The notes below the pieces were generated by a model. It did no database searches. It worked only from the letters and a program-made list of their open reading frames with translations, and was not told the DNA's origin. A program made the position numbers and the translations under genes. A stretch of DNA of 60,768 nucleotides, the filler included, from Dugesia japonica (lineage: Eukaryota): NCBI GenBank assembly GCA_001938525.1. It is 6 parts of 6 records of this genome, joined end to end, with 100 filler letters (N's around TTAATTAATTAA, not from the genome) between each part and the next. Parts side by side here need not be neighbours in the genome. Positions count along the whole stretch, not along the records: positions 32,848 to 43,073 come from MQRL01523693.1; 5 more parts are not named here. The stretch is one strand, 5' to 3'. Of this stretch, positions 11,261-60,680 are shown piece after piece. Each line of letters begins with the position of its first letter. The stretch's first letter is position 1.

Positions 11261-11633
11261 TAGTCTCATATGATAGAAATACAAGTTGCTCCCAGGTATA
11301 ATAAACATTAGTTGAACTTAAATAATAAAATGATAATAAATTTTATGTTTTAGAAAACTTTAATTTCAATTAGATATTTCATCAACAAATTTGATTATAG
11401 TTAATTAGGGGCAATTATTGCTTATTTTTAGTATATTCAGTTAGTTTTAAATGATTTTAGTTGAAAACGTTTCTCACTGATATCAATTTTCAGTCNNNNN
11501 NNNNNNNNNNNNTAAGACATTTCCTAGTAATAATCTATTTTGATAAGGAAATTTCATTGAAAAGGGTCAAATTAAAATTTCAACATTAGTCGCTCCCATT
11601 GAATTTTAACACTTATAGTTATAAGATGATAAA

Positions 11634-11733
11634 NNNNNNNNNNNNNNNNNNNNNNNNNNNNNNNNNNNNNNNNNNNNTTAATTAATTAANNNNNNNNNNN
11701 NNNNNNNNNNNNNNNNNNNNNNNNNNNNNNNNN
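11634..11733. other. Artificial scaffold-joining spacer
   Basis: 44 N + TTAATTAATTAA (stop in all six frames) + 44 N. Confidence 0.95.
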
Positions 11734-11786
11734 GGTAATTTTTTGTTAACGAAAAAGAAAACTGCAACGGTTTCCGGCTTAATTAG

Positions 11787-12226
11787 AATATGAAATATTA
11801 TGGAGGAACTCTCGAGTCACTGCTGAACACGGAGGAAATGAACATTATGACATTGTGCTTGTTCCGGATCGGTATTCAAATTACGTTAGTTTTATTGATT
11901 GTGCTAATTACTAAATTAATGTAACACAAGTGAAATTTAACTAGTATAATATATTTTTCACTCTTTAAGTTCTTTTAATTTTTTTGATTAATTGAATTAA
12001 CTATAACTTAATAGCGAATTATAATTAATTCACTAGATAATGCGACTCACCAAGTAGAAACTGGTAAATTAAGAATTAATAATAAAAGAACTAATAAGCA
12101 TGTCTCAAAAAATCGAGCTAGTATGATGGAAGACGAACCCAAACCAAAGGAGTGCGAGTCTGTACTCGAGTTTTGAGTCAACGGCTCTATTCCGAAGATC
12201 TGGACTTTTGGGGACGCCCTAGATAA
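11787..12226 (+). CDS. Possible last two exons of an unknown gene
   Basis: Relatively GC-rich segments 11787-11884 (TAG / GTTAGT borders) and 12122-12226 join in phase 0: YEILWRNSRVTAEHGGNEHYDIVLVPDRYSNY-YDGRRTQTKGVRVCTRVLSQRLYSEDLDFWGRPR*. Confidence 0.35.
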
Positions 12227-14565: not shown

Positions 14566-16799
14566 AATAATTATTATTTAATAATTTTAGCCAATGATCA
14601 AGTTTCATTTTAATATGTAATCAGTTCTATTTCAAATAAAATTATCTTACTAAGCATAAGTTGTAATAGTGAAATAAATTATGTCTAAAAATATTAATTG
14701 TGATTAGCAAATGAATGTAATCAGTTCTTATAAGGTATTTATACAGTCATTTTATGTTATATGTATAAAATGTTCAAGGCTTCTATTATTTTTAAAAGAA
14801 AAGTTTCGAGCATTTATGATTTTTTAAATAAAAGTTTCACACTTATTATTTTTTATGAAAGGTTCCACGTTTTTTATTATTTTTTAAATATATTGTAAAA
14901 TAAAAATATACAAAGACTCTTTGATTATTTTTTTATTATATTCTATAATAAAACATGTAAATATACATGGACTCCAATCTTTGGTTATTTTTTAAAAGAT
15001 ATATTTTATAATAGAAATATCTCAAAGACTAGCCAGTTGATTATTATCACATAAAAATATACATGGACTCACTTTGGTTATTTTTGATTATATTTTATGC
15101 AAAAACTATCCTCTGTGAAACAATAAACTGTAAATAATACAGGTAAATAATATAAGTAGCTATGTAAATAATACAAACAATTCATCGTAACTATGTAAAT
15201 ATTACACTGTTATTATGTAAATAATACAAAAACATTGTTAAAATTTGTATTATATTATATTAATTTCATGTTACTATAATTACCATAATTATAATTGTGA
15301 TAATATGAAATTAAATAATCAATAAATATATTGATTGCTTAATTTCATATTATCATAATTGTATATAATATTAAAAATGATAATATGAAATTAAAATTTG
15401 TAATTTTTAATTTCAAATACAATTATGGTAATATGGTAATATGAAATTAAAAATGGTGAGTTTATTTATTTTTATATTTTAAATGTTGAATGAAATTTTT
15501 TTTAAAGTTAATTTAATGTTAATTTAATATTAATTGAATTTAAATTTAGGTTAAAGGTTCAACTATTATATGCTTTGATGTTTAAAGATTTCATTAAAGT
15601 CAAAAGTTAAAATGTGGCAAAGATGTCTACTATGTGATAAATGATACAAAAATATAATATTCATTGAATAAGTAACAGTAATGGAATTCCTTACCATTTT
15701 GCGGATCCGTGTCTAGCCAATTATTAGCGATGATGACTGATTGTTTTTTAAACAATTGTAACAGTGTTCGATTTGTGACTAGATGTATTGTGGTTTATAA
15801 TTTGAGACCGGAATAACTGCGGTGCTGTACTTCGTCGGATGATGTAGTGTAATGGTACCGAAGAAAAACAAGATTGTTACTGAGACAAAGCATGGAAATT
15901 ATTAATAATTTATTGATTTAAACTAATTAACATTTAAAGATAAATATAATCTTGCAACAAATATCATTTTTACAACTTAAAAGCTGCATGCATGCAACAT
16001 AAAAATCATAATTTTCAAATATTCATACCCACCTGAAAAATTATTTATTTAACACCATCACCTACTCCAACTTCTCCCCTTTTTAACAAATTCCAATTCA
16101 TCAAAATGTATCAAAAACTTACAACACCGCACCATTTTTAAAATTCAAACGCGATAACTCATCACTGTAACACACAGGAGCATTTTAGCTCATAGTTACA
16201 TTTAGCAACCTATAGACCGATTTTAATGGTCAAGTTAAATCCACCATCGAAACCAACAAGCATTAAAAAAAATACACAAATTTGGTTTTTGTCGTTTGTT
16301 AGAATATGTTTACACACAGAAGCACCATCACATAAAAATATAGAAACACAGCACATCGAAAATCAATAAATCAATTGGCGTGGGCAGTGGAGTTGGATTG
16401 ACTAATCAAACAAGTGACCAATCTACCTACTCTAAGCGTCAATCTGGTGTTTATTTACTAATGTTAGTTCATTTCTTATACCTCTTTTGAAAAAAGGTAT
16501 ACATATCAGTATTAGTCAACAGTTCAATTGGTTCATTTGATGGCATCAATTTAGATGCTTGATTCGAATCCAGAATGCCAAAAAATATTAACGGAATCAA
16601 TTTATTATGTTCTAATAACCTTTTTCTGAACTGTTAAAAGAAATCGGCTAACAGATATTCATCCAGCTTCCGGTACACATTTATATAATCTAATTGATTT
16701 TTACAACCGATTATTGTCCAGATTTCGGAATAAACGGGTTTGAATGTTCCAGACGTTGAATTTTCCAATTTAAAAAAAGACACTTTATTGTATATGATT

Positions 16800-20040: not shown

Positions 20041-20639
20041 TATCATCAAGAAGGAACCGGTAGAAGTTATAGTTAATTAAGATGAACCGGAAGTTATTAC
20101 CATTAGGTAGGAACTGATAGAAGTTATTATAATCGAGAATAATAAAGAAGCAATCAAAATGGAACCAGAAGAAGCTATCAACATAGTACCAGTAGAAACA
20201 ATTAGGAATAATATAAATATAACATCAAAAGATTGAAATAATTTTGAAGTAATTGATGAATTAGACGAAGAAGACATCATATTACAAGAATTCATTGAAG
20301 CAGAAGAAAGTATTCACGTTTGTGGCTCATTAAATTCAGGTGTTACAAATGAAAATTTTGTTATAGAAAGGGCCTTATATAGATGTTACCCAATTATAAA
20401 TATCGACATATATTGGAATACTAATCAAATTATACTACCAGAAAATTTGATTACCCAACTGTTTAAAATAATAGATGAGATGAAAGAATTAAAAATAAAA
20501 TGGCACAGGAATCCAATCAATATGGTGCTCAATTTGTTTAAATGGATTTCGAAATGAAAAAGCTTTTGAGAAGCATCAAGTAATTTGCGAAAAGATTCAA
20601 ACGGGAACAACATTATATACAATGCCCGCAGATAAAAAC

Positions 20640-21015
20640 TTAGAGTTTAGGGATTTCTCTAAGACAATGACACTATCATTCGTTATATACGCTTATTTCA
20701 AATCAGTTTTACCATCAGATGACTTATATTTTTAAAGACATATGCTGGTTTCAGCAGGACCTTTGTTAGTAAATAATTTTACTAACATAACATCATATAA
20801 ACAGTTTATTGGTGTTAACTGTATATATAATTTCTTGAAGGAAATTCAAGAAATAAATAGGATTATAGTGGCTTCATGTTACGAACAGAATGGAAAGAAG
20901 CCAATTGTAATATCTAGAATTCAAGAAATATTGTTTGCTGCAGCCAAAAATAGTTATTTGTGTAAGAAAAAATTGTCTGCGCCAGTTTGTGATCATTATC
21001 ACTTTACTGGTCAGT
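20640..21015 (+). mobile_element. Polinton/Maverick-type protein-primed DNA polymerase B, N-terminal fragment
   Basis: SYLCKKKLSAPVCDHYHFTGQY resembles the CxxC...VRDHCHxTGxYRG motif of Polinton-type PolB. Confidence 0.55.
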
Positions 21016-21029
21016 ACCTGATCAATGGA

Positions 21030-21267
21030 AAAAGTTCTATACTAATTTCATCTTGAAACCGGGTAAAGAAGAGTAATCTTATCTAGTCTCATATTGTAGA
21101 TCTATAGCAATTTTAAATACCTTGTATCGGTTATTTGCAATTGTAATGAACAACAGAATTCTCGGTTGGATTTCCGTAGTAAATTTACTCTCACCAACTC
21201 AAAATGCGGTTAATACATCAAAAAGATGCTCACAGCACAATGCTACAATACAATTAATTAGAGAAAA
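21030..21267 (+). mobile_element. Non-LTR (R2/NeSL-like) RT fragment
   Basis: YCRSIAILNTLYRLFAIVMNNRILGWISVVNLLSPTQN..RCSQHN, i.e. RT domains 1-2. Confidence 0.65.
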
Positions 21268-29470: not shown

Positions 29471-31831
29471 ACCGTTGTTTTGTTATTAACTGTCTGTGTA
29501 ACCAGAACTTTGGGACAGTCAATTATTGATGTTGCCCGCTCCGTCAATACAACCCAGCCCCGGCTCCACTCCATGCTCCAAGGACAGTTTAACAAAAATT
29601 ACACATCCAACAAAGTTGATAGAAAAAGAATCTTTTTATATTATAAATTAAATAAATAAACTTTATTACATATATGAATTCTTTGTAATCCTTTACATAT
29701 ATGAATACTTTATTACATATACTAATTACTAACAAACGATATCAATTTTCGTTATTTATTCTTTGAATTAAAATTGCCGAGATTACGTCTTCTTTCATTA
29801 TTAATTTTCTTTCAATATTAATTTTAGAGCTAAAAATGGTCTCTCGATATATGCTTGAATAGTTGCCATACAGGATGCCACTCGACATGCATCTTGAATT
29901 CATTCCAGATAGCAATAAATTGCCTCGAATACTGATTTAACGTTGAGCTTATCCATGCCCTCCATGATTTCACAATCTTTATAAAAAATTTTCAAACTCT
30001 ATTTCGTTGGAATTATGTATTTCTGAGATTTTTTTTCGTTATTCTGCTTATCTAGCTCTTTCTCAAAATCATCATCTTCTGAAGAATTTATGCCTAGGGC
30101 AAAGGCATGATTATTTCCTTGTCTATTTGATTTGACTGTTAATAATTGTAGTTTTTTACTCGGTTGCAATTTATTGAAACGTCGAAGAATATTCTGTTTC
30201 TCAAGCCTTTAGGCGATATCTAAGAGTCCTTTCTATAGCTTTCAATCTTTGCAATGAACTTAGTAAAATCCTATAGTATGGATCAACNNNNNNNNNNNNN
30301 NNNNNNNNNNNNNNNNNNNNNNNNNNNNNNNNNNNNNNNNNNNNNNNNNNNNNNNNNNNNNNNNNNATTAGATTCGTATTTCCTTGCATAAATTTATTTA
30401 AATAATATAATAAATCAATTTAAATAAATAAATAAGTTGTCAAAATTTTTTATTTTCGGCTTTCCCGACAAAAAATATATTATAATCTCAAATTCCATAA
30501 ACATTCAAAATTAAATGAAACAAAATAACCTCAAAGAAAAAAAATGGAATAGATTTTTAGATATGTACGCAATGTATGTATGTACTAGTTTAGTACATCT
30601 ACTNAAGTACATTTAGTGAATATATTACGTAATGTATTTTTTTAATAAACTGGAGCAGTAGAGCAATCAAAATTACTGTGCCTCAATGTTCGCTCCAGCT
30701 CCGGGAAAAACCTTGTGCTCCGATGTTCCGCGCTCCAGCTCAGAGCTCCGCTCCAATGCTCTATGTGTAACCACGAATTGTGAAAGTTTTGTTATTTTTT
30801 ACAAAAATAAATTAATTAAGAATGAACATTTGAGGTTCTATATATATATGGTATCATATAATCCACTCCAATGCTCTGTGTGTAACCATAAATTGTGAAA
30901 GTTTTGTTATTTTTCCTTGCGAAATTTAATTCTATCATAATATTAATAAAATTCGTGTTTGTTTTATTGCATTAATTTAAATATTTAATTAAAAATCTGC
31001 GTGTATTCATTTCATACATGAACACATTTTATTTCGTCATAATTTCCAAATTCATAAAATAAGTGACTTCTTGAATTTTTCAATAGATTTTTAATTAAAA
31101 TATTTAGAAAATGAAATATCAGGCCAAATGGTACAATTTAATTTTTTTAATCAAAAATATAAAACCTGAAATTAGCAGTGATGTTCAACATTCTGTTATG
31201 ATAGGTGTATTCTAAAAGAATATAGACTATTTTTGTATAGCAACTAGAATGCTGCATTGAATTTAAATCTTAAGCAATTTTCGTCATCATTGTCTCAAGT
31301 TTAATATTTCTATGTTATTCGCAGTTTTTAAAGTGTGACATACTTTAAGTAACAAGTTAAAGATGTCTGACAGATTGTGACGGATTAAGGTAAAAATCGT
31401 CAAAAATAATATGATATACTTTATGGATGGCCACTTAAAAAGTTCCTGAAAATTTTTGGTTTAATTTATGGACAGTCAATATTCTCATAAAATAAAAAAG
31501 ATTTGGAATTGAAATGCGATCTAAGATTTTTAAAACTAAAAACAATTTCTATAGTGTAAAACAATTTAAGGATTGACATAACAAATATTTTATATCAACT
31601 TTATATAAAACTTTAATTAATTAAAGTATAATTATTTATCTAAAATATGGCCGTTAACATAGCATTTGAAAATATAAATTACAAATTAAACTAACAGATG
31701 TGTATTTAATTATTAATTAAATCTAAATAAACCGCCATGAATAATTTCTTATCAAAATTATAAAATGAAAATAATTGAGAATATTTTATCTTAATTAGCT
31801 ACTTTAGAGATTTTTTTTACAAATTAATAAA

Positions 31832-32691
31832 ATGCTAATTACATATTTATTTCTATTATTAATCGGAACGGTATTTGGAGAATGGAAAATTATAAATGGT
31901 AGCACGACAAATATTCATGAATATCCATCAATGGTTTCTCTGAAAATGTTTGGAGATCATTTATGTGGTGGAACTTTAATTAATGGAAATACGGTATTGA
32001 CGGCCGCACATTGTGTTTGGGATTTTTATGAATATCGACAAAGATATTTTGATTTATACGAAATTAAAGTGGTTCTTGGTGAACATGATTTATTTCATGA
32101 AACCGGAAGAGAAAAAGCATTTGTAGTGAAAAAGATATACATTCATCCTGAATACAACAAACAAAAAGCGTATTTACAAGGAAATGATATTGCTTTGATC
32201 AAATTCAATGGTTATATTTCCGATGATGAAGTGCATTATATCAAATATAATTCATTTAAATTATATGAAGAATTGAAACCTGGTGACCGTTGTGAAATTG
32301 TTGGTTGGGGAAGCATGATGTCAGATGGGAAAAAGAAATCACAATTTTTACAAAAAGCTTATTTAGATGTAAAACATGATAGTTAATCGTTAAATATAAT
32401 TAAAAGTTTTTAATTTAGATAATAACTAATGATGAATGCGCTGAAGAATTTTATAATGTTAAAAATAATATGGCTAATTTTTGTGCAGGCAGAGGAGCTT
32501 TATCAATTGCTGCTTGTAAAGGTGATTCTGGTGGACCAATGTTTTGCCGTAATTCAAAAAATGAACTCATTCAAGTTGGGATTGTCAGTTATGGACGAGT
32601 TCCATGTGGATTCTCAAATGTTCCCACAGTTTTCACTAAACTTTCGCATTATTTCAACTGGATTGATAGTATTCTTAATTTGGATGAATAA
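31832..32691 (+). CDS. Secreted S1A (chymotrypsin-family) serine protease, 269 aa
   Basis: Exons 31832-32368 and 32419-32691, with a 50-nt GT-AG phase-0 intron (KAYLD/IITNDEC). Signal peptide, K|IING activation site, TAAHC, NDIAL, GDSGGP. TATAAAA at about 31759 and AATAAA at the stop. Confidence 0.95.
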
Positions 32692-33250: not shown

Positions 33251-34146
33251 GTTTATACATGTTGTGGCAATCGGTAAATACATTGGATTATCAACTATTA
33301 TTTGTACTACTTCATCAGTTTCATGCTTTCTATCCATATGAGTTCAACAATACTATTATAGATGAACACTTGTTGATGCAACTTAATTATTTCCGCTTTT
33401 CTAATATCTTGCAATATACCATTAGTCATTTCTGCAGGTGAATATTGTTGTGTTTCCAATCCCAATGTTTTTTGTCAAGACTTTATCGAATGTAACCGTT
33501 TTGATATCATTTTTTAGTGACATTTGAAATAGATTAATTGATTTGAGACTAATTGTACAAAATAGTTCAGAACCACTTTCTGTTAAATATTTACTTAATT
33601 CTTCAATTTCTTTTATGTATAATTCATCTTTCAATTGTATAGTATGATTACTTACTTGAGTATATTCTTTTTTAAATTTTACAAATTCTATTGGAGAATT
33701 TTCTTTAAATGCTGTATACAGAATAGGAAAATATCCGGGTTCCATTTGGTTATTCTTATATGAGAACCCTAATCTATTTGCAATTATTTCATTTTAAAAT
33801 ATGGTAACATATGAATATTCACATTTATTAGTTAAATAACCACTTAACGCTACATAGACATTATTATTTTCATTTTTACTTACACTCAAAAATTGTTGTT
33901 TGGGATTAATTGTACACTTTATTTCATTTTTGATATATTTCTTGTAGACATTTATTGAATTTTAGACTTGCTATATAATGGAAATTTTTGATATACAAAA
34001 GTAAAATCCAACAATGCTACTTCCCAATTACTATCCATATAAATTGGATTTAGAAGCTCAACAATGAATTTACTTGCATTATTATTAGGATCAATAAGAG
34101 AACAGCTATTACTAGGTAAACGTGTATAGAAATGATTTGATGTCAT
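33251..34146 (-). pseudogene. Polinton minor capsid (penton-like) protein
   Basis: N-terminus FYTRLPSNS...NNASKFIVELLNPIYMDSNWEVAL fits the Polinton minor-capsid start (FYxxLPSN...F...L...WEVAL); frameshifted. Confidence 0.7.
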
Positions 34147-35176
34147 TATTTACTAACTGTGATGCTAATATCCAAGTGGGCTTTTGATATCCATGCGATT
34201 TTACATAATATTGTTTATTCTTTTTTGTTCATTATGATTTTATTATTTTTTCGATTCTATATTTAGTACGAGGTGGAATGACTTGTAATTCTTGCTCATA
34301 AAATTTTCCTTGTATAATATTATCTTCATAATCTCTAATTACATACATGACTGGATTTTGTTTAGTATTGATTTTCGTTATTTGAAACCCTTCATTGCTC
34401 CAATTACTATCAAAATTTCTAATGAATGAAGATACACTTATTTTTCAGATTTTAACATGGTCACCAACTTTATATTTTGGTTTCTTATTTGCTTTACTTT
34501 GATCACGTGATAGCTATCATTTTAGTTCATTGTTTGAACTTACATCAACCGGTCTTGCTCCATTTAAACCTTTATGACTAAAATGATTTTAACTATGAAT
34601 CAATTTTGACATTTATTCAGGTTTTATTATTAGTATGCACAAAGTATTTTTTCAAAGAATCTCTTAATGTTCGATTAAATCTCTCAACATGTGGCGCTTT
34701 ATACTGAAATAAACAGTATAATGGTTTATTTTTAGATGTGATAAAAGATTTTTGACTTTAGAGTTGCAAAACTCTTTACCCAAATCAGTTTGCAAATTAT
34801 CAGTTTGTCCATCTTTAAACATTGACTTAATTGCTGGTTCCATTTCATTAGCAGATTTCAATTTAACCGGAATAGCTCTTGCAAATCGACTGAATACATC
34901 AATACATGTTAAAATATACTTCTATCTTTTATTTATTTTTGAATACGAAATCATCTCCATCAAATCCATTTGCCATAAATCATCAATACCAAATATTTTA
35001 TATGCTCTTGTTGGAAATTTATTCAACATTGGTTTGTTTAAACTGTACGCCAATTGACCCGATAACCACCTTTTGGTCTTTGTTTTTGTTTTTTGTGCTG
35101 CTTTCATAAATTTTTCTACGCCATAAAAACCTGCGGGATTTTCTGCATCCGTCCATTTCGTCTTTAGTTTGCCCAT
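34147..35176 (-). pseudogene. Polinton retroviral-like (rve) integrase
   Basis: NPAGFYG, AYSLNKP, DDLWQMDL, LTCIDVFSRFA, LQTDLGKEF; C-terminal IEKIIK..YYVKSHGYQKPTWI; frameshifts. Confidence 0.9.
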
Positions 35177-35244
35177 TACAAAAATTAGATGAAAATTTTA
35201 AATCAAAATTAGGTAATCATTGTAAACCGCCCATTGTTTATTTG

Positions 35245-35530
35245 TAATTAGTTAATCTAAGTGTTGCTAATACAATGGGTAGTAATGCTGCTATTAAACC
35301 ACCTCCTTTTTTATTTTTGTATTTACAAGTGTTAATAGTGTTCTTTTATGTTTTTTCAATACTTACTTTCTAACGTTACTCATATTTACATTTCCGCGAA
35401 CAATATTTATAATAATTTCAATTAAATCATCCATAACAAACGTTGGAAATGATTTCAAAATTTGCATTCTCGTTGATTTTGAAGATTGAATTAATGATGT
35501 AAAAAATGGAATACTTCGTTGTAATTTCAT
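35245..35530 (-). pseudogene. Small basic Polinton protein (core-protein-like, ending KKGGGLIAALLPI)
   Basis: MKLQRSIPFF...DDLIEIIINIVRGNV...GGGLIAALLPIVLA; one internal stop. Confidence 0.55.
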
Positions 35531-35809
35531 TTAATATTTTAATAATATAGCTTACCTGTATTTGTTTATAACGATTTCTATTTTCCGTTTATGTTCGAAA
35601 TTTTCTTACCATACAGTTTTGTAAGTTTCTTAAAAATGTTCAACTGTTTACTTTGTTTTCTATTTCCATCCTTTTTCTTTTTAATAATACGCTATTTTGA
35701 TTGTTTATCTTTCTTCATTTTAGGAATACTTTTGATCTGATCAACTATAATTTTCTTAAATTTGTCATTTTAAAAGTATAATAATAACTTAGTTTGTTTA
35801 TACACACTA

Positions 35810-36400
35810 ACACCGTCAAGATTGAAAATATCAGTTCTCACCCTCAGTTCGTCTGGACATTGTTGTGTAAAATCGACAAAAATATAATCATGTGGATTTA
35901 TTGTTGCATCTTGAAATGATCCAATATGAAAGTGTCTATTATTAGGATAAGCCTGTCTTGCTAAAAAATTGACAGCTGTTTGATCTCATGGATTTTTAAA
36001 TAGAACCAAGTATTGTACATTTAAATTACGTATCCTATGACTTTCTCCTTGATGGAATAAATTTTTTAGTAATTAATATAACAGTAACATTACAATGTTT
36101 GTTTATTTTTGTAAATAACTTATTAAAGTCTTTTTCTTTGTTCGCCTCCTGATACAAATCATCTACTACGATAACATCACCCGGCTTCAATCTCTTGCTA
36201 TAATTTTTATCAAATCCATTAATAATTTTCATTTTAATGTTGCAAAATTTTGATTGTGTTGACCCATGCTCTTCATCTGCACCTCTGTGTCAATATATTT
36301 TGTTAAATTTTGATTTAAATAAATTTTGTTTGAGTAACTTGCATTTTTCCACTACCGCTTGGACCAAAAATTTGATAAACAGCATCTTTTCTCAATCCAT
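35810..36400 (-). pseudogene. Polinton A32/FtsK-like packaging ATPase
   Basis: Walker A IFGPSGSGK, Walker B VIVVDDL, LFTKxxxHCNVTVILIT, LNVQYLVLFKNP, FLARQAYP, YIFVD...ELRVRTDIF; frameshifts. Confidence 0.9.
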
Positions 36401-36525
36401 TTTATACAGATTTAATTTATTATATTGTTTATAATACTATTTGTCTTTGTTTAAATGAATCAATTAATTTTATTTTTAAAATATTTGTATATATATACAC
36501 TCTCATTTATAAAAAATCATTAATA

Positions 36526-37102
36526 ATGTTAATTAATATTAATTACAAAGGTTATTAATTAAGATCATTATGTTAAGCACCTTAACCAGATGTTTGGTTC
36601 ATCACACATCGCCAGTTCTGCTTATCAAAAATGGCCCACTAGACACTTGTATTCGATGTACATCTTTAATGAAGAAAAACGCACTTCGAGCCTATTTAAA
36701 GATTGAGAAAGGTAAAGATGTAACAAGCAAAATGAAATTTCCTATCTGTAAACCTTCTCAATATGATGACAAAAGTGGAAAATATACATTAATATTCTTT
36801 AAATCAGGAAATTGTCGAATAATGCGATGTAAAAGACCGTTGGAAATGGAAAATTACGGTATGATATAAAACATATTCGTTTGCAATCATTAACAATTGT
36901 AATCAATTTATAATAAATTGGCAAAAATGACAAAATGTTTTTTTGAACAAGAATTGTTTCCGCAATACGACTTACAAAGTATGATCCTGTATGTGTAAAC
37001 TTATTTTCATCAGACAAAAATTTAATACTCGGTATAAAAAATTTACACTATCAAGGATATGTAGATAATATTATTTCTGATGTATATAATTTAATTGTTT
37101 AA
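36526..37102 (+). pseudogene. Divergent TATA-binding-protein-like gene (two TBP repeats), disrupted
   Basis: Repeat 1: TLIFFKSGNCRIMRCK. Repeat 2 (one frameshift): FFEQELFP-AIRLTKYDPVCVNLFSSDKNLILGIK, versus canonical TBP YEPELFPGLIYRMxKPxxVLLIFVSGKVVLTGAK. Confidence 0.7.
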
Positions 37103-37137
37103 TTTCACAACACGAATGCACATGGTTGCAATATGCA

Positions 37138-37235
37138 TGCAAGTATAACGAAGCATTTCCTTCTTTGATTATTACTTGTTTTTTATTGGTCGATTTTAAT
37201 TGGTCTATTTGTGTTAAACAGAGAATTGTATATAA
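37138..37235 (+). promoter_or_regulatory. Putative promoter module, copy 1 (TGCAAGTA..AAGCATTT..ATTGG..TTGTGTTA..TGTATATAA)
   Basis: Similar to 38528-38609; TATA element about 50 nt upstream of ATG 37287. Confidence 0.5.
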
Positions 37236-37286
37236 CACATTACATATTTCATTTTAATCAGTTGTTAATTTAATTTTAAAAAAAAT

Positions 37287-37544
37287 ATGTATTCAATTCA
37301 AGTAGAAAATATTCGAAAGACATGTGAGGAATCGGCGGAATCAAATGGCCAGGAGGATATGATTAATGAAAAGAGTAATATTTAATTTTTTAATTATTCA
37401 TTATTTAACTTTTTTTTATTTCTAGATATTTTCGCATTAATTCATTTTCTTCAGAAAATGGTCCTGAAGAAAGAAAACTTTGAGGCTATTCTAGTGAAAT
37501 ATTATAAAGAGATGTATCTTCATGCACATTGCGAGTGTTTATAG
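37287..37544 (+). CDS. Small spliced ORF (68 aa), unknown function
   Basis: Exons 37287-37374 and 37426-37544, 51-nt GT-AG intron, frame conserved: MYSIQVENIRKTCEE...KNIFALIHFLQKMVLKK...HAHCECL*. Confidence 0.5.
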
Positions 37545-37942
37545 ATGCAAATGCATTCTATTAGAGAAGCTCATCATAAATATTTCAAATAAATGTTAAT
37601 TTAAAAATTGTTTTTATTTTGTTATTTACTTTGATTTTTAGTTATTATTTATTTTTTATTATTATTTTTAAATAGAGTTTGCTTTTTAGTTAATTTTATT
37701 ATTACGACTTTTGTTTTTAAAAAAATACTAATAGATAATAAATAATAGCTATTTAATAGAGTTTGTTATTATTTAGAGATAATGTTTTATATAATTAATT
37801 TGTCTGACGAAATATTGCTATTTAAATAGAGTTAATTAAAGAGACAAATAAAAAAAACATTTATTATAATAACAACATTTACAAAATTTATAAAATGTCA
37901 TGAATTTTCCAAATTGCAGAGTTAACTTTTCTATTAAACGAA

Positions 37943-38345
37943 TTAATGTTGTCTCCAATTTTCTTGACTCCTTTCCACCTGGATCATATATTGTTGGGAT
38001 TTTTCGAATACATTCAATTTTGATTGACTGTAATTGATGAAAACTGAATCCTTTATTGTAATTGTCCGTTCAATTCTTTGGAAAAATAAATTCAAAGTAT
38101 TCATGTCTTTGGAGCCGATATCGGATATCAACACACTATACGTAGATTGTTGTATCTTCACAGGTTGCTAAATGAAAATATTAAATAATAAAATAAATAA
38201 ATACATTTACTCGAAACATGTATACTATTAGACTCTTCAAGAATTTTATCTGGTTACCATGAAATATCGTAGGCTTTCCGTAATCCACTGCGATATTCAT
38301 AACATTATCTTTTGTTAAATAATTTTGTTTAATAATTTCTTTCAT
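37943..38345 (-). CDS. Small spliced ORF (119 aa), unknown function
   Basis: Exons 38345-38211 and 38167-37943, 43-nt GT-AG phase-0 intron: MKEIIKQNYLTKDNVMNIAVDYGKPTIF...MFR/QPVKIQQSTY...WRQH*. TATAAAA upstream and CCAAT boxes at about 38435-38480. Confidence 0.6.
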
Positions 38346-38527
38346 ATTTAAATAATGAAAATTTATTGAATGTTTTTGCTTTTATACTCAGTGTTGATAA
38401 GTATTTATTGTAAAGTTTGTGTGTGTTACTTTTTATTGGTTGGAATTGTGTTACTTTGATGATTATTGTGTTTTGATTGGTAATTCTTTGTTAAATCAAT
38501 TTAAGTGCAATACAAATAAAAAACCAT

Positions 38528-38609
38528 TGCAAGTAAACAAAGCATTTTTCAACTTTTTGATTTGTCGAATTTAACTGCACAAGTTGTGTTACATAAAATT
38601 TGTATATAA
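38528..38609 (+). promoter_or_regulatory. Putative promoter module, copy 2
   Basis: Same motif order as 37138-37235; TGTATATAA about 50 nt upstream of ATG 38659, whose reading frame enters a gap. Confidence 0.5.
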
Positions 38610-41600
38610 TGCAGATCATTTTTTTATATTAATATTATTTTAAAAATTATTTTAAAAAATGAAGANNNNNNNNNNNNNNNNNNNNNNNNNNNNNNNNNNN
38701 NNNNNNNNNNNNNNNNNNNNNNNNNNNNNNNNNNNNNNNNNNNNNNNNNNNNNNNNNNNNNNNNNNNNNNNNNNNNNNNNNNNNNNNNNNNNNNNNNNNN
38801 NNNNNNNNNNNNNNNNNNNNNNNNNNNNNNNNNNNNNNNNNNNNNNNNNNNNNNNNNNNNNNNNNNNNNNNNNNNNNNNNNNNNNNNNNNNNNNNNNNNN
38901 GCAAGAAGAATAATAAATGAAATGCATCCAGAATGTGAAAGAAAATCAAAAGTGTTGGAAGAAGACGAATATTGGAAATACGTTTTGGAAAAAGAATTGC
39001 TCGATATTAAGGATGTCTTATTCGTTTTCGAAAACGAATTCGAAATAGCAAACCTATGTGAAAACGATCCGTGTCCATACTAGAAAATGGAGAAAATTAT
39101 TAGGGAAAGATTTCCATGATTTTGTAAGTGGTTGAAAATATTAGTTTGTTATTAAACAAATTTTAGTTTANNNNNNNNNNNNNNNNNNNNNNNNNNNNNN
39201 NNNNNNNNNNNNNNNNNNNNNNNNNNNNNNNNNNNNNNNNNNNNNNNNNNNNNNNNNNNNNNNNNNNNNNNNNNNNNNNNNNNNNNNNNNNNNNNNNNNN
39301 NNNAAACATTATATTTATGGGTAATTACTCAGTTATATAAAAGACATTAAATTTTTGGGTAAATACTCAATTACATAAAACATATTTTTTGGGTAATTAC
39401 TCAGTTATATAGATTATATTATATCATTGAGTATTTAACCAAAAATATAAACTGTTTTATATAATTGAGTATATGATTCAACATTATAAAACAGTTGATA
39501 TTAAGTTGATATTTTTCATTTCAATTAATTATTAATTATTATTATTAATTTTAATTATAATTATAATTTTAATTACAATTATTATTTTGAGGTATTATTT
39601 TAAATATTAAATATACTATTCTTTGTTATCAAAAATAAATTTTTTGTTTTTTAAATTAATCATAAAGCTGATTTTGTGTTTGTCTTAATATTATAATTCT
39701 TAGCTTTTGAGATGTATATTTAAGTCAAGGTTAGTATTCGATTGGTATTTGGTGAATCCTTTGAATCGATTTATAAAATATTTATGTGTAATGTCTATGA
39801 ATCAACAGAATCTTTTGAATAGATAAACCAAATAAAAATGTACGATGTCTAAAAATAGCTTTAAAATATTTTATATTATTACTAGGTCCTTTTTGAACCT
39901 TTGCGGCNCACAGAATATTCTAAAACCCTCTTCGATACCTCCATGTGGAGCATGTACCACAGGTTAGAAATCTTTGGTCTATACATTGCCTAAAAGACTA
40001 CTATCGAATAAAGATTCCTTTCTACCGAAATATGTTGTAGCTTACCAATGTGCCATTTGTGCTGCCTATGCTGTCACCTAATTTTGTAGTGCTATTGTGC
40101 AACTGCACTTATACTACATTATTTTATACTATATAAAAAATATGAATAATTCCTCAGAAATAGTAGCACAAGAACACTACAGTCCTGGGAACACAGAACA
40201 TGATTCACTCCCACATACTTTAAATGTTGAATATATATCAGTATTTATATATAAATCCGTTAGTTTTTGTGAGCAATTTAAATTTTTTTAATTACACCTG
40301 TTTACATTAAAACGATTTACATTAAATAATACTATTGACAAAAAATTAAAATACAATTATAATTGCAAGATTCATTAATAAAACATAAATCATCTTTTAA
40401 TATGTTTTCTTATTAAATTTCAGCTGGTTTGCATTGAAAATCTAAAAATAAATTATTTAGGTTATATTAATAATAAAACTTTGCAATTAGAAGTCAAAAT
40501 TTCTGGACTAGCTTTGTGAAATCTTTAATTCTATACAATCAATTTTCACCACCTTGTTGTTGACCTCCGATAAATTATGGCAAGTCTCAACTCATGTGCG
40601 GATGACTGTACATTGCATGAATAGCTCGATCAATCATATCAACAATGAATATTTACTTGTAATCAAATGGTTTATACATCATATACTTTTCAGAAATGTA
40701 GGGTTAAACATGTTTTTAATTCATATGGAAAATTAATCAACCTTCCCGCATTATCAATTTTCTTTACTTCAATTTTGTATTTAGTCAAAATAAATAAATC
40801 AATTAACTAAATTAAAGAAATTAACAAATCAAATTATTATGAAGGACAGAATTCCGAAAAATTGTAATTAACTAAATAAAATACTAAATTTTATAAAGCC
40901 TTGAATAATGTACTAAAATTGAAATAATAAAATTGAAACAAAATTTTAAAAACTAAATTTTATTGAAAATACACATTTGCATTCATTCATTTAAGCAGAC
41001 GTAGTAAACAATAAAAACCTTTAACCAAATAATTTCTTCAATTATTGCATAAAAATTAGAGCAGCATGCATATTTATCATAGAAATTTCGAGTTTTCTCA
41101 CTCTAGATTGATTGATTTTAACTGCAATTTTCAGCAGTTTATACAGTTCTATTTTTGCGTACGTGTATTGTAATTTTTTTCTGATTAGATAAATTTTTAT
41201 TACGTATTTTCTTCTTTTCAGATTGGTCAATCTTCAATTCTATCTAGTTTTATTCCTAAAGTTTCATTTACGTTCTAACTTGAAATTCGGATTACCGATG
41301 ATTGATTTCAACGAAGTTCTTCGGCTTGCGAATTTTACTAATAATCCTAGCCAGCTAATTCTATATTTATATTTTGTATTTCGTTTGATTTCTTTATCTC
41401 ATATTTTAATCTGGAATTAAGTTTCTTTTCTTAGCCAACTTTGTAGTATTTTTTGACTTGCTTTCTCTCTTTAACTTTTTGTCTTTCGACCCTTGCTGTA
41501 ATTTTTCAATTTAAATGTGTTCTATCCCAAAAGTTACCCTCCATACAGAGAAAAATTCTGTTTTGCTCATTTGTGTTCGATAGCCCAAATGCTTTGAAAG

Positions 41601-46984: not shown

Positions 46985-47470
46985 TCCTCAAGCTAATTTG
47001 GGATCTCCGCTTCACTTTTTAAAGAAATCCTTGAAAAGAACAGCTGAAGGTTCCAAAAGAGATGATAATCCGATGAAATAAACTTGAAAGAGTATTGCGG
47101 ATGTAGGATAATCTCACAATACACCACCAGAATTTCTATTTTCTTTTGATTTACAGTGTGTGGCCTAGTGTTGTCGTGTAAGAGAACTATTAAATGTTTT
47201 AAACTCGGTAGTTTTAGTTGTATTCCTTCTTTTAGGCGTTGAGGCTGTTGACAGTAGATTTTAGCATTGATTGCCATTTTTTTCTTAAGTATTTCGTAAT
47301 AGATAATCTTATTACATCCCACCAGAGGTACAAAGTTATCTTCTACTGATGAAGATCTGGCTTTGTTTAAGGTTTAGCTTGCTTGTCAGGGCTAAACCAT
47401 TGGTTCCTTTGTTTTAAATTGACCATTAAAACACACCATGTTTTACCATCTGTAATTATGCTAGATAGAA
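46985..47470 (-). pseudogene. mariner transposase fragment
   Basis: IITDGKTWC, LWWD, LLHDNTRPHT, LHPQYSFKFISSDYHLF (HDNARPH and YSPDLAPSD equivalents). Confidence 0.9.
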
Positions 47471-47539
47471 AGGATTAATATTTTTTCATTAATAAATTTA
47501 TGACTTTCGGCTTTTTTAAGAAAACGATTTACAAAAATA

Positions 47540-48817
47540 ATTTCGAACCAAAGCACAACAATTTCAAAACACACTCACATTCCCCCTTTTAAGAATTTTT
47601 TTGATCTTTTCTGCGTTTCTTTCGAGACTTTTTCTGTTTGTATCTACAAGGATATAACGTCTGTCGCGAACCTTTCCTTTCATCCTATAAGGTCCTTCAA
47701 ATCGATCTTGGTTCTTGTTTCTTGTTTGAACTTTCACAAAAACCTCATCATCAACCTTGAATTGTCTTTTGGTCAATATCTTTTTATCTTGTTTTTCTGC
47801 TCTTTTTGAGAATCTGTTTCTTACCATTTTTCTCTGCTTATTCTCTTTCCAAATACGATTTCAGCAGGGTTTATCCTGATAGTCTTCAGTTTTGTAGCAT
47901 TCGAAGTAAATTATATCTCCAGCAATACATCAACCCAATGTGAAGTTTTCCTTTCTTTAAGTGTCGCATTTATTATATCTCATATAGTTCTAAACTGCAT
48001 CTTGATTTGTCCATTTGTGTTATGATATGGATTCGAAAACCTGAGGGTAATTCAATGTTCAGCTGCAAAATCTTTCATTGATTTAGACTTAAAGGCTCTT
48101 CCACAATCAACCCTAACTTCTCTCGACACCCGAACTTTAATATCCACTTCTCCATTATTGCTTTCCGTATAGTATCTTCATCTTATCTTGTCATTGCTAT
48201 ATACTTAATGCATTGGTCTATTATACCGAGAACATATCTTTTTGACCTCTTGTCTCTTGAAAGGGTCTACATATATCTATAAATAACAACTGAAACAGTT
48301 CTGCTGGCTGTCATTTTCATTTTTTCCTTCGTTTTTGTTGTTAACACTTTAGCTTTCTATCATGTTATACAGCTTCGGAAAACCTCTTTTAATTTACTTC
48401 ACAAATGTTTTGCGTTGTATACGTTGCTACTTTTCTACTCCAACATCACACAATAAATATTTCATCATCATTATAATCTCTTCTTCTTTATCATCAGGTA
48501 TCCATGTTCCTTCATTATTTTCTCCAAAATTGTCTTGCTTCTCTTGGATATCTACTGTATTTAACATCCTTGTTTTTAATTTTCCACTCTTGGAATCTTC
48601 ATGTGACATTAGACATTGTACAAATGGATCGCATTGACTCCTTGACAACATATCCGCATTTTTATGAAGCCATCCTTTTCTATATTCCAATTTTATATCT
48701 AAACTGCTGAAATAATTAATCCAAGTTTGAAACTGTGATGTAATCGGCTTCTTGGTATTAAGCATAAAAATGATAGCTTTATGGCCTGTTGTAAAAGTAA
48801 ATCTCTTCCCATATAAG
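47540..48817 (-). mobile_element. Ty3/Gypsy RNaseH end and integrase, PPT and start of 3' LTR
   Basis: LYGKRFTFTTGHKAI, LEYRKGWLHKNADMLSR, DRFEGPY; polypurine tract AAAAGGGGGAA followed by TG at about 47579. Confidence 0.85.
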
Positions 48818-49044
48818 TTGTTAGCGGGTTCATATTTACTACTAAAATCTTCATTCATAATTATAAAATAATAAGAAAATCTGAAATGGTTTTAATACTA
48901 AAATTTATTAATATTTACAAAATTGATAAATTTACAACTAATTTATAACTTCAAAAATAAATTAATAAAATAAATAATAAAACAATTAATGTAGAATTCA
49001 GAAAAACTTACACAAATCAAATCTTCAGTATAAAACAATAACTT

Positions 49045-52000
49045 GCAATGTTTTTCATATAAATTCCTAACAAAATTTTACAGTACGTTTTTTCAAATAA
49101 ACTCAGTCTCCATATTAAAAAAAAATTGTAATCGCTCAATAATTAAAAATTATTTAATTTACATACATATAAAATACTTAAAATATTCAAAAATTTCCTC
49201 ACGTTCCCCATCTCAAGAATTTTTTAAGGTTTTCGACATTCCATGTAAGCTTCTTGCCGTCTTGACCGACTAACATATATTATCTATCGTGAACATTCTC
49301 TTCTATCTTGTAGGCACCTTCATATCTATCTTTCCCTTTATCTCTCGCTTCAATTTCAACCAAGACCTCTTCACCGACCTGAAAGTTTCTTCTTGCTGGA
49401 AACTTGTTAGAATTTTGTGTTTTTGTCTTCTTTGTTCTTTGACTGTCATTTTTCTCGACTTATCTGCAAACCAAAAACCATTTCTGCCGAACTCAATTGC
49501 GCTGTTTTTTGTTTAGTCGCATTTATTACAAATTTATGACAATAATTCCACCCAATTCGATGTCCGCCTCTCTTACATTGTGGCATTCATAAATTCCCGT
49601 ACCGTCCGGAACTGTCGCTCAATCTGTCCATTAGTTTTATGATGGTAAGGACTCGCAAAATTCCAGACGTTCTTTAATTTATTTGCGAAATCTATCATCT
49701 CCCTAGCTTCAAATACTCTGCCGCAATTCGATCTAATTTCTCTAAGGCATCTAAATCTCAATATTCATTGTGTCCATATGTTCACCCGAATCGATAGTTC
49801 GTCCTGCCTGGCCAAAGCTATCAGCCTCACATTTTTGATACATTGGTCAATCATGCCCAGAATATATTGCTTCCTTCCTTTGGCTTCTTTTAAAAGTCCG
49901 CAGATGTCAGTAAACATCACCTCAAACCGTTCAAAATTTTCTGACCAAACCGTAGGTTCCTTAACTCCCACCGTATTAGTTTTCGCTTTTTGACACCATA
50001 TAAAAGTTTGAACCAAATCTTTCGTCATTTCTCTCAAACGGTCTCCAGCATTCTCGCACAAATGTAGTCCTTTGTCTTTTCCACTCCTGCATGGCATAGA
50101 AACCTGTGAATCTCCCAAATTTGTTTATCTAGCTCCTCCGCTGTTATATACGTTTTTCTTCCTTTTCTATAGTTCCTTTCGTATCATTAATCTCAGTTTT
50201 AACGCCTTAAACACAATCTTGAGTCTGAAACAACCTCATCTTAGGCTTCTATCTTTCATCTGGTATTGTGTAGATTTATCACAATTTAAAATACTGAGTG
50301 TATCTGTATTCCCGTGAAAAGTACCTTTTCTATATTCCAACTTGATGTCAAGGCTGCTACAAAAATTAATCCACATTTGGAACTGGCTAGTAATCGGTTT
50401 TTTTTTCTTAACATAAACGTAATTGCTTTGTAATCCGTTCTAAGTGTGAAACTTTTCCCATATAGATAATGTTTAAAATGTAAGCAAAAAAAACTGCTTG
50501 CAATTCTTTCCATGTTATAAAATAACCCATCTCATGATTAGACATCGCGTGTGAACCGTACGCAATCACCCTTTCTTTCTTATATTCGTCTTTTTGTGAC
50601 AAAACTGCACCAACCGTGCTAAAACTGGAGTCCGCGTCTAAGATGAATTATCTCCGTAGATCTGGAAATCCCAACACTGGTGTTGTGGTCAGTGCTATTT
50701 TCAATATTCAAAAATCTCTGACAACTCTGCAGACCAAACTAATTTTGTGTTTCTTTGACCACTGCACAATGGTTCCAGTTTCCTAGCTTTTATTGCGTAA
50801 TTTTTAATAAACTTGTTATAGTAGTTGCAGATATCAAGGAAACTACGTAGTTTCTTCACACATTTTGGTTCTCCAAAAGATTTAATTGCTTTTACTTTTA
50901 CTGGGTCGATCTGAATACCTTTTTCACTTATTATGTGACCTAAAACGTTTATCTCTCGTTTCATGAAAAAACATTTTTTCGGATTGATTCTCAGACCTGC
51001 TTTTAAAATTCTGTCTAAAACCTTTTCTATAATCACATAATGTTCCTCCCTAGATTTTGAAAATACCAATATGTTATCCAGGTATACCATGGCTTCTTGT
51101 ACTCATTTTATTACTTCCATCATCATCTCCTGAAAAGTCCCAGGAGCTGCCGCTATTCCAAACGGCATTTGGTTAAAACAATATTGTCCCTGCTTTGTGG
51201 AAAACGCTGTCTTTCTTAAGAGTCCTGATCCAATTCCACCTAGTAATACGAATTTCCCGGTCTATGAAACTGAAATAGGTATTCTCGCTCAATGCATCCA
51301 GCATTTCTTCAATATTTGGCATTGGAAATGCTTGTCTTTCTGTATTCTCATTCAATCTTCTAAAATCCAGACATAATCTTATGTCTTTTTTCTTCCTCTT
51401 CCACACACATACCAAAGGTGTGTTCCAAGGTGAATTACACTTTCAAATAATGTCATTCTCAAACATATTCTTTATTGCATCATCTATCTTATTTTCAAGG
51501 TGCATCAGCTGGCTATATGGTTTCACATTAATATGTACACTTTTTGTAGTGATTTTATGTTTGATTAGATGAGTCCTGCCCACATCCTATTTATCCGCCA
51601 TGAATACTTCTTCTCTCATTCGGCCTATCTCCTTTAAACTATTGTCACCTCCCCATTCTATAATAACACTCGCCCTTTGACAGCATTCGTCCTTTTTAAT
51701 ATCTGCCAAAATTTGCCTCCAAATTACAGAAATAGCTTTTTCCTTCGTCTTTTAGTCGTCTTTCCTCATTTTGCTTTAATCGAAATCCAAAAATGTTCAA
51801 GAATTCCATTACTCCAATCATATCCGGTAGAACTTGACTTCCCACTATAAAAGCTATTCGTTCCGTCCTGTCACCTACCGTCACATCCAACCTCATTTTT
51901 CCCATCGTTTCTAACATGCTGTCGTTAGTACAGCGTAATTTCAAATCCCATTCCTCTGACTGTTTACACCCCAATTTTTCCAACTGTCCACACTCAACAC

Positions 52001-59455: not shown

Positions 59456-60680
59456 CTTCTTCATGATTTGGGCATCTGCCTTGATGTCGTTAAATGAGCC
59501 AATAGAACTGTTGAAAGATAATGATATGTACACCTTTTTTGAAGGTGGAATAAGAGCTGGTTTAACTTTTGTTAATAAAAATTATGTGGAGACTGATGAA
59601 AACACTGAGCTCCTATACATTGACATTAACAATCTTTATGGATGGCTTCCTTATAAAAATTTGAATGGGTCTATTCTGGGTTTGATAAAATTTTAGAAGA
59701 ATGTGAGAAATCTGACTGGACTCATTGTCATATGGATATTTATTAGAAGTTGACATAATTATTCACGAGAAAATTCAAGAGCGAATAAATGATTTCCCAG
59801 TTGCGGCAAAGCATCAATGCGCTCCTGGAAGTAACGTTAAGAAATTTATGTTAACTCATTATCCAAAGAAGAACTACATTATTCATTGGAGGATGTTAGA
59901 AATGTATATCCAGTTAAGTGTGGAGGTAACAAAGGTACACAGAGGTGTTAAATCTGTACAGGCATCGATTTTCGAGAATTATATTAACGTCAATACAAAT
60001 TTGAGATCGAAATGTGAAACAGAGTTGGAGAAAAATTTCTACAAGTTATTAAACATCAAAAGCTGGACTTAAAAGATCAATAAAAATCGACAAAGACTTA
60101 ATAGCTATTTGTTGAATAAAAAAGTGGTTTGCTTAGATCGACCAAGTTTTATTGGACAAACGATTCTTGATTTAAGTAAACTATAAAAGAAAATTGTCAA
60201 ATATCTACAGTTTCTGGTGACACTGACAGCTTTTTCCTTGAAGTTAAAAATATTAAGTTAGAAAAACTAACTGGATTAATGGTTGAAGTTGTTAGATACT
60301 TCAAATTATGAAAAAAGTCATCTTCTATTCAATGATTATTTAAATTTGGTTATTGGAAAATTTAAAGAGAAAGTGAAGGCCACAAATATATAGAATGGAC
60401 TTTCTTGAGACCGAAATGTCATAGTCTTCTAAGTGAAAAAGTTTTGATAAAGGCTAAAGGTATTACTTTAAAAAACACTGGTCTCACTCATCAATCGTAT
60501 ATTGAATGTTATGAAGAAGATACATCAGTTTTAGTGGATCAATTTATGATAGCATCAAAAGAACATCAATTATATAATATAAAATGTAGGAAAATGGCTT
60601 TATCAAACAAAGATGATAAAAGAATATGGACTGACAAAAATTTAAGTTATCCATACGGATATAACAAATTATCCAAAAAT
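59456..60680 (+). pseudogene. Polinton/Maverick-type protein-primed DNA polymerase B, polymerase domain
   Basis: FEGGIRAG, LLYIDINNLYG, GYLLEVD, FYKLLN, FIGQTILDLSK, GDTDSF, IGKFK, LRPK, KAKGI, ALSNKDDKR, SYPYGY; many lesions. Confidence 0.9.

Follow-up and report, generated by a model that had tools for sequence, protein, structure and literature searches.

A broken TBP-like gene in a decayed Dugesia japonica Polinton belongs to a family of small Polinton-borne TBPs with a candidate cognate promoter

Introduction

Nucleocytoplasmic large DNA viruses usually bring their own RNA polymerase, and the late box of beta- and gamma-herpesviruses is TATT. The closest working analogy to the locus described here is that of KSHV ORF24 and EBV BcRF1, in which a viral TBP fold serves viral late promoters with host Pol II (PMC7498053, PMC12529657). 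In the available parts of those papers, the herpesvirus TBP mimics are large, multi-domain proteins that act in a six-protein complex and bind the Pol II CTD directly, and TFIIB binding is stated not to be compatible with the model of ORF24 (PMC12529657). For Polintons (Mavericks), the core gene set has been given as int, ppolb, atp, pro, the major and minor capsid genes, pz and pw (Barreat and Katzourakis 2021, PMC8097293). TBP is not among these eight genes, and 'TATA' has 0 occurrences in the text covered here, in agreement with the original prediction, made from the window sequence alone, that TBP lies outside the usual Polinton core. A gene labelled 'TBP' does appear in the legend to Figure 5 of Starrett et al. 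2021 (PMC8502044), for MELD viruses with an adintovirus-like PolB. In the available text of that paper this is a label only, placed in a section on non-animal datasets, with no family, residues or promoter described, and one supplementary file contains no 'TBP'. No Polinton TBP family or TATAAAC promoter is described in the accessible parts of the literature covered here, including PMC11161782, PMC11131425, PMC10748475, PMC8097293, 10.64898/2026.06.19.733378 and 10.64898/2026.10.13.758929, with supplements and subscription journals outside its scope. Save for the figure-legend label, a Polinton mini-TBP with a candidate cognate promoter is apparently so far undescribed.

Here we analyse a window of Dugesia japonica DNA (assembly GCA_001938525.1), a whole stretch of 60,768 nt joined from six records, with a GC content of 18-36% per 2-kb step and with assembly gaps; the stretch 33251-38665, which holds the gene under study, is free of N gaps. 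The value of this fossil copy lies in the family of intact mini-TBPs behind it. Like cellular TBP (PF00352; 1ytb, 1cdw, 2z8u, 1mp9), mini-TBP is predicted to form a saddle from end to end (Z 13; rmsd 2.5-3.0 A over 143-148 residues) and keeps the repeat-2 stirrup and three of the four intercalating phenylalanines. Unlike it, mini-TBP has about 150 aa, no N-terminal extension, 22-27% identity and a clade of its own, and it lacks the repeat-1 convex helix and the phenylalanine at yeast position 99, with substitutions fixed on the DNA face. The TBPs of nucleocytoplasmic large DNA viruses share the fold (best viral structure matches from E 1.7e-08 onward) but have only 8-19% identity to mini-TBP and are mostly longer, and, whereas those viruses usually have their own polymerase, no RNA polymerase gene was seen in the mini-TBP loci. 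In contrast to the herpesvirus mimics, mini-TBP is a bare core of about 150 aa that keeps the TFIIB stirrup and has no CTD-binding N-terminal domain, and the candidate late box of its Polintons is TATAAAC instead of TATT. By analogy, it is likely that mini-TBP works like the herpesvirus mimics without being a member of that system.

Results

The broken TBP-like gene and its neighbours

Both TBP half-repeat signatures that had been claimed for 36526-37102 are present on the plus strand, split over frames: LIFFKSGNCRIM lies in the frame 36543-36869, ELFP follows in the same frame past a stop, and AIRL..DPVCVNLFSS.K.LILGIK is found in a different plus frame, terminated by the stop at 37100-37102. 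The gene was also correctly described as a disrupted, apparently intronless frame without a long N-terminus. Its frameshifts lie near 36850, 36910 and 36960. The ATPase starts at 36400 on the minus strand and the TBP-like gene at 36526 on the plus strand, which gives a spacer of 125 bp, the distance originally proposed. Decay about equal to that of the Polinton genes, another of the original claims, is reflected in comparable numbers of breaks per 100 codons (2.3-3.7 in the TBP-like gene, 2.0 in the ATPase, 2.1 in the core gene and 2.4-3.0 in the integrase). Three family positions that are invariant or nearly so are substituted in the window copy, which is dead, a fossil.

The broken frames alone gave no Pfam TBP match (0 of 5 reads of the gene). 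One of them retrieved a single intact relative among 5 candidates, P0001 (E 1.7e-21), whose 151 aa align to window positions 36526-37096 with an identity of 69%, the alignment being interrupted by three frameshifts and one insertion. Since P0001 scores PF00352 (E 4.4e-15, 55.7 bits against a cut-off of 22.9) and matches back to the window (E 9e-26 and 7e-22), the TBP-like match of the window is not due to chance.

Table 1. Polinton-related features and promoter-like boxes around the broken TBP-like gene, in window positions.
Feature	Position	Strand	Remarks
Broken mini-TBP gene (~150-aa family)	36526..37102	+	Three frameshifts, one insertion, substitutions at otherwise invariant positions
First nine codons of broken mini-TBP gene	36526..36552	+	7/9 identical to N-terminus of intact relative P0001
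Inserted piece, ~160 bp, of unrelated repeat abundant in RNA	~36553..36715	.	Absent from related copies
Broken A32-like packaging ATPase	35791..36400	-	2 frameshifts, 2 stops; relatives match Pox_A32
Broken small conserved gene, cluster C4, between ATPase and integrase	35244..35530	-	
Broken rve integrase	34151..35173	-	Relatives' version adds chromodomain
Broken gene of cluster C9, minor-capsid position	33251..34146	-	Label from gene order
Fragment of small conserved gene C13	32872..33045	-	In relatives, C13 lies ahead of major capsid gene
Decayed homologue of accessory gene C1	37952..38227	-	E 5e-07
TATAAACA box, 33 nt before ATPase start	36426..36433	-	
TATAAACA box, 40 nt before core-protein-like gene	35563..35570	-	
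TATAAACA in last ATPase codons	35795..35802	-	Ahead of short lysine-rich reading frame
TATAAAC	33257		Directly before assembly gap, near C13 fragment
Candidate host-type core promoter of mini-TBP gene	36488..36521	+	TATATATA at 36488, initiator-like TCATT at 36517, 31 nt apart

The gene extent that had been predicted holds except for a piece at about 36553-36715, which belongs to another repeat. This piece has no counterpart in P0001, it is missing from the DNA contigs of related copies in two sequencing runs, where other letters stand at this point, and RNA run X22 covers it about 430-fold, with loose ends at both sides. Because it is missing from the related contigs and is so deeply covered in RNA with loose ends, we read it as a piece of another, transcribed repeat, and not as an intron, an explanation rejected since related DNA contigs also lack the piece and carry a different sequence at the site. 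The repeat behind it is strongly transcribed from one strand in run X22. The piece has no match elsewhere in the window or in the loci of relatives, and none in Pfam; our impression is that it may be a transposase fragment.

Contigs of organism A are rich in sequences related to the window element. The mini-TBP gene is thinly covered by RNA reads that come from related copies and are mostly less than 95% alike, so that they are uninformative on the expression of the window copy. Most ATPase reads of run X22 share their mate direction with the reads of the oppositely oriented mini-TBP gene, and therefore no clean sense early/late pattern appears in this run. None of the sequencing runs listed contained half of the words of the locus, and no RNA run was listed among the holders.

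An A32-like packaging ATPase together with an rve integrase, as expected of Polintons/Mavericks, is present both in the window and in the relatives, which also share the gene order ATPase, small core gene, integrase, C9, C13 (Table 1). We take the C4 gene to be core-protein-like, the C9 gene, by gene order, to be the minor capsid, and the cluster C21 gene of relatives to be PolB; the latter encodes about 1000 aa, occurs in three loci and in L062, and matches in Pfam only Endonuclease_7, in two of them. In relatives, C1 is often found beside mini-TBP (19 loci). The major capsid and adenovirus-type protease genes, both present in relatives, were not found in the window fragment, and only scattered polymerase-like (C21) fragments lie 16-24 kb away. 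Neither terminal inverted repeats nor a target-site duplication were found flanking the window fragment, an element cut by assembly gaps. Further Polinton fragments, some of them polymerase-like (C21) and one the terminal part of a C9 gene, were seen at 16484-16726, 20487-21050, 40684-40773 and 59463-60674, and these extra copies suggest several decayed Polinton insertions in the region. A trypsin-like protease gene (31808-32691, plus strand, Pfam 4e-30) lies across an assembly gap from the left end of the element and may be either a host gene or cargo, and 46993-51102 holds fragments of other mobile elements (transposase, integrase-like and reverse-transcriptase). The trypsin, transposase and reverse-transcriptase matches point to animal DNA.

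A family of intact mini-TBPs

A search with P0001 yielded 182 proteins among 188 candidates, most of them of 145-165 aa. P0001 matches 35 TBP chains among 39 PDB sequences, and an Atlas search likewise assigns PF00352 to mini-TBP. With a profile built from 92 members, 61 representatives come first (E up to 1e-30), followed by a 'mid' band of longer proteins (about 170-200 aa) and then by cellular TBPs. The structure predicted for P0001 (pLDDT 95.4) is a two-repeat TBP saddle across residues 1-151; its top 38 structure matches are all TBP (Z 11.1-13.3), and the next unrelated entry has Z 6.8; viral structures match less well than cellular ones. The fold expected from the original prediction was thus recovered both in Pfam and in the predicted structure.

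Trees were built with LG+G4 from trimmed rows, 16 of them canonical and none a verified TRF2 sequence, and were left unrooted, so that no donor can be read from them. The mini clade has support of 100/99, and two unjoined pieces of the window gene fall beside P0001 within it (SH-aLRT 99), away from the cellular TBPs, which are grouped at 99 and lie beyond a 100/100 branch; this placement speaks against a recent processed pseudogene of host TBP. The dN/dS of intact mini-TBPs has a median of 0.22 and a maximum of 0.55 (68 non-independent pairs), and that of the relatives' ATPase is 0.07 (6 pairs); judged by these ratios, mini-TBP is under purifying selection in the intact relatives. The co-divergence of mini-TBP and ATPase, calculated over 10 loci without near-copies, is suggestive and not significant (rho 0.43, p 0.087); we prefer this weaker repeat to a first Mantel run that included near-copies (rho 0.45, p 0.029). 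Scans of a viral contig collection with P0001 and with mini-TBP, ATPase or capsid alignments found no relative, and a phage collection had no match to the Polinton capsid.

The 'mid' band comprises TBP-like proteins of about 165-220 aa, intermediate between the mini family and cellular TBP (P0200, P0201, P0202, P0205, P0212, P0219, P0224, P0232, P0236, P0247, P0261 and P0263), which have the P-x-Q and F-R-I-M-G changes in common with the mini family and keep more of repeat 1. Seven matches were longer, among them one 357-aa protein with a C-terminal extension, weak as evidence for or against fused forms; in P0264, mini-TBP is followed by a C-terminal extension of about 200 aa of no Pfam family.

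Protein anatomy

By alignment to yeast TBP, whose numbering is used here with percentages referring to conservation across the mini-TBP family, Asn69, Phe116, Glu186, Glu188, Leu189, Phe190, Pro191 and Phe207 are kept. Three of the four DNA-intercalating phenylalanines (116, 190 and 207) are 100% conserved, and the fourth (99) is lost, being Pro in 99% or, by another register, Lys/Pro. New residues have become fixed at positions 71 (Asn, 97%), 122 (Arg, 99%), 124 (Met, 100%), 159 (Ser, 97%), 194 (Arg, 98%) and 205 (Asn, 99%), position 203 being ambiguous. That the residues of the DNA face are fixed, not drifting, argues that DNA recognition by mini-TBP may have been changed rather than lost. 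The long convex helix of repeat 1, which in TBP binds host regulators, is missing: the alignment has a 13-residue gap and the model contains no helix between strands 45-51 and 65-77. The glutamates of the C-terminal stirrup, which contact TFIIB in TBP according to the available part of PMC10005294, are conserved at 97% and 100%. The altered-specificity mutant TBPm3 is defined by positions 194, 203 and 205, which face the second base pair (available part of PMC1636458); the link is no simple fit, since the TATAAAC motif retains A at position 2.

Genomic context in relatives

A metagenome scan gave 61 loci, all found via mini-TBP; L060 and L061 were rejected as mini-TBP loci, with only 25-residue matches (E 8e-5) and no Polinton genes, and were dropped before all counts. 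Among the remaining 59 loci, many have record prefixes in common and cannot count as independent. When clustered, the neighbours of mini-TBP include a Pox_A32 ATPase, an integrase with rve and chromo domains, an adenovirus-type protease (Peptidase_C5) and unnamed accessory genes, and a double-jelly-roll major capsid protein is also encoded beside it; relatives of the window element thus carry the core module of Polintons. At least one core gene is present in 9 of the 11 loci of at least 4 kb, in 12 of 20 at 2-4 kb and in 2 of 28 below 2 kb, and the two core-less loci of at least 4 kb hold accessory genes that are seen beside core genes elsewhere. The claim that a virus-like element carries its own TBP-like gene is supported by the fold, by the viral clade in the tree and by these Polinton-borne relatives.

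The head-to-head arrangement of the TBP-like gene and the ATPase is real in the window and is not a conserved layout. Among the 15 loci with both genes, mini-TBP lies upstream of the ATPase on the same strand in 12, on the opposite strand with another gene between in 2, and after the capsid module in 1. Linkage, followed in the relatives only, is therefore to Polinton genes and to the element as such, not to the ATPase promoter, and mini-TBP does not always abut the ATPase.

A scan of prokaryote genomes anchored on the ATPase gave four Polinton-like contigs within metagenome bins (L062-L065). These lie within bacterial metagenome-assembled genomes and are most likely mis-binned eukaryotic or viral DNA. 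L062 has both mini-TBP and the motif described below (at four starts within 60 nt, and 96 nt ahead of the ATPase). L063 is of a distant lineage with a PolB_2 gene and encodes at 11568-12122 (minus strand) a 185-aa TBP with both repeats (PF00352, 1.3e-36). This protein holds all four phenylalanine positions and is placed outside the mini clade in the tree. Its union with that clade is rejected by an AU test (p 0.012, though a long-branch warning applies), and it is possibly a second Polinton capture of TBP. L064 is cut short and shows no TBP, and L065 is too short to judge.

Two classes of promoter-like sequence

The presence of TATAAACA 33 nt before the ATPase and 40 nt before the core gene of the window has a probability by chance of about 0.005 in each case. 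The 125-bp spacer of the window holds one promoter-like element of each of the two classes set out below, back to back. In the relatives, motifs were counted after removal of upstream windows at least 75% alike. (T/C)ATAAAC lies at most 60 nt before the start of the ATPase in 11/12 cases, of the core gene in 9/9, of the major capsid gene in 4/6 and of C2 in 9/11 (shuffle means 0.14-0.46), for the most part at 32-42 nt. Pooled, 33 of these 38 starts have the motif, mostly 30-45 nt away, always in forward orientation (33 forward, 0 reverse). It is absent within 60 nt of the mini-TBP start (0/36), rare before the integrase (0/6), C9 (1/5), C13 (1/6) and protease (1/5), and found before some accessory genes (C6 3/7, C1 3/15). 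It also occurs at the 3' end of the ATPase gene in 13 of 15 relatives. Seen from the sites, 66 of 134 TATAAAC lie 28-45 nt before an ORF, against 4/174 TATAAAA, 18/152 TATAAAT and 3/67 TATAAAG, counts that include near-copies and in which the TATAAAC figure is inflated by the ATPase 3'-end sites, which overlap conserved codons.

The starts of mini-TBP have instead a canonical TATA in 18/36 cases (shuffle 8.2) and TCA(T/C)T in 23/36 (shuffle 7.5), and the two are found together 27-33 nt apart at 8/36 mini-TBP, 5/7 C11 and 4/5 C5 starts. On these counts, the upstream sequences show two promoter-like classes, a host-type TATA with an initiator-like element at mini-TBP and some accessory genes, and (T/C)ATAAAC at the ATPase, core, major capsid and C2 genes. 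At the core starts of distant Polintons in which no mini-TBP was seen, the motif is absent (L063 0/7, L064 0/5); these two are the sole outside controls, and their genes abut or overlap and may not each need a promoter. The pattern in L062-L064 fits a coupling of motif and mini-TBP, as far as two elements with tightly packed genes allow. As all 59 loci were found through mini-TBP, the two may also co-occur by shared descent.

Discussion

The mechanism that we find reasonably probable is that intact mini-TBP is made early by the host machinery and then, bound to TATAAAC, brings in TFIIB and Pol II to activate the packaging and capsid genes. Host TBP/TFIID would transcribe the mini-TBP gene early. 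The saddle would then bind TATAAAC, its repeat-2 phenylalanine pair being intact and its repeat-1 half remodelled; given the geometry of TBP, the latter would face the 3'-terminal part of the box with its non-standard C. The conserved E-P-E-L-F stirrup would recruit host TFIIB and hence Pol II, and, as it lacks the repeat-1 convex helix, mini-TBP would escape the regulators of host TBP. Of the two functions originally suggested, driving the promoters of the element is better supported than interference with host TBP, since the TATAAAC box is specific to one gene class.

Among other explanations, TATAAAC could be a weak site for host TBP or a forkhead-type factor that times the late genes, with mini-TBP binding elsewhere (e.g., at the termini or at a replication origin). 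ATAAACA fits what we take to be the forkhead consensus, and replication initiators, too, contain TBP-like folds, with Z no higher than 6.8. The motif is, however, strictly one-stranded and fixed in distance, the sequences at the 38 late starts (ATAAACA 30, ATAAATA 2, GTAAACA 0) are narrower than a forkhead site, and the retained TFIIB stirrup points to transcription, all of which makes this reading unlikely. Quite unlikely, too, is that mini-TBP acts as a decoy or inhibitor that sequesters host TFIIB or occupies host TATA boxes, TATAAAC being read by host TBP or another factor. The TFIIB stirrup is indeed the best-conserved surface and much of repeat 1 is reduced, and host TBP had 27% activity on TATAAACG in one plant assay (available part of PMC10005294), but the DNA-facing positions are fixed at new residues (97-100%) with no free drift, the motif is characteristic of one gene class and does not precede the mini-TBP gene itself, and the two Polintons without a visible mini-TBP also lack the motif. 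Finally, a processed pseudogene, derived from host TBP or from a TBP-related factor and lying beside a Polinton by chance, as the intronless, decayed frame without a long N-terminus might suggest, is largely refuted and barely credible against the 69% identity to intact P0001, the position of both window pieces in the mini clade apart from cellular TBPs (in a tree with no verified TRF2), and relatives that are intact, under selection and placed among Polinton genes.

With mini-TBP as the probable activator of the TATAAAC genes, a broader proposal can be made, to which we give even weight for and against: that a major animal-type Polinton lineage has an autonomous early-to-late switch based on a 150-residue TBP of altered specificity, acting on TATAAAC with host TFIIB and Pol II, and that Polintons captured TBP perhaps at least twice, counting the separate full-length TBP of L063. 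If so, no smaller viral take-over of the pre-initiation complex would be known, and protein and box would form an orthogonal TBP-promoter pair of natural origin. Such a dedicated factor and its late box would amount to a self-contained viral gene programme, which bears on how Polintons express their capsid genes and on whether they depend on a helper virus. They would also indicate to what extent TBP can be reduced and given a new specificity with TFIIB docking retained. One small protein and one seven-base motif also make a directly testable pair.

Some accessory genes of the relatives deserve mention. C2 (e.g., L043:5870-6352), often found directly before mini-TBP, is a conserved gene of about 160 aa with no Pfam match and with an acidic motif presumably like that of DEDD exonucleases. 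AT-rich GT...AG stretches resembling introns lie between accessory ORFs (C5, C1, C10) in L003, L005, L011 and L022, which would be in keeping with transcription by nuclear Pol II. In some mini-TBP Polintons (L024:1918-3327, L026, L021, L031 and L040), the second gene downstream encodes leucine-rich repeats and, apparently, a signal peptide.
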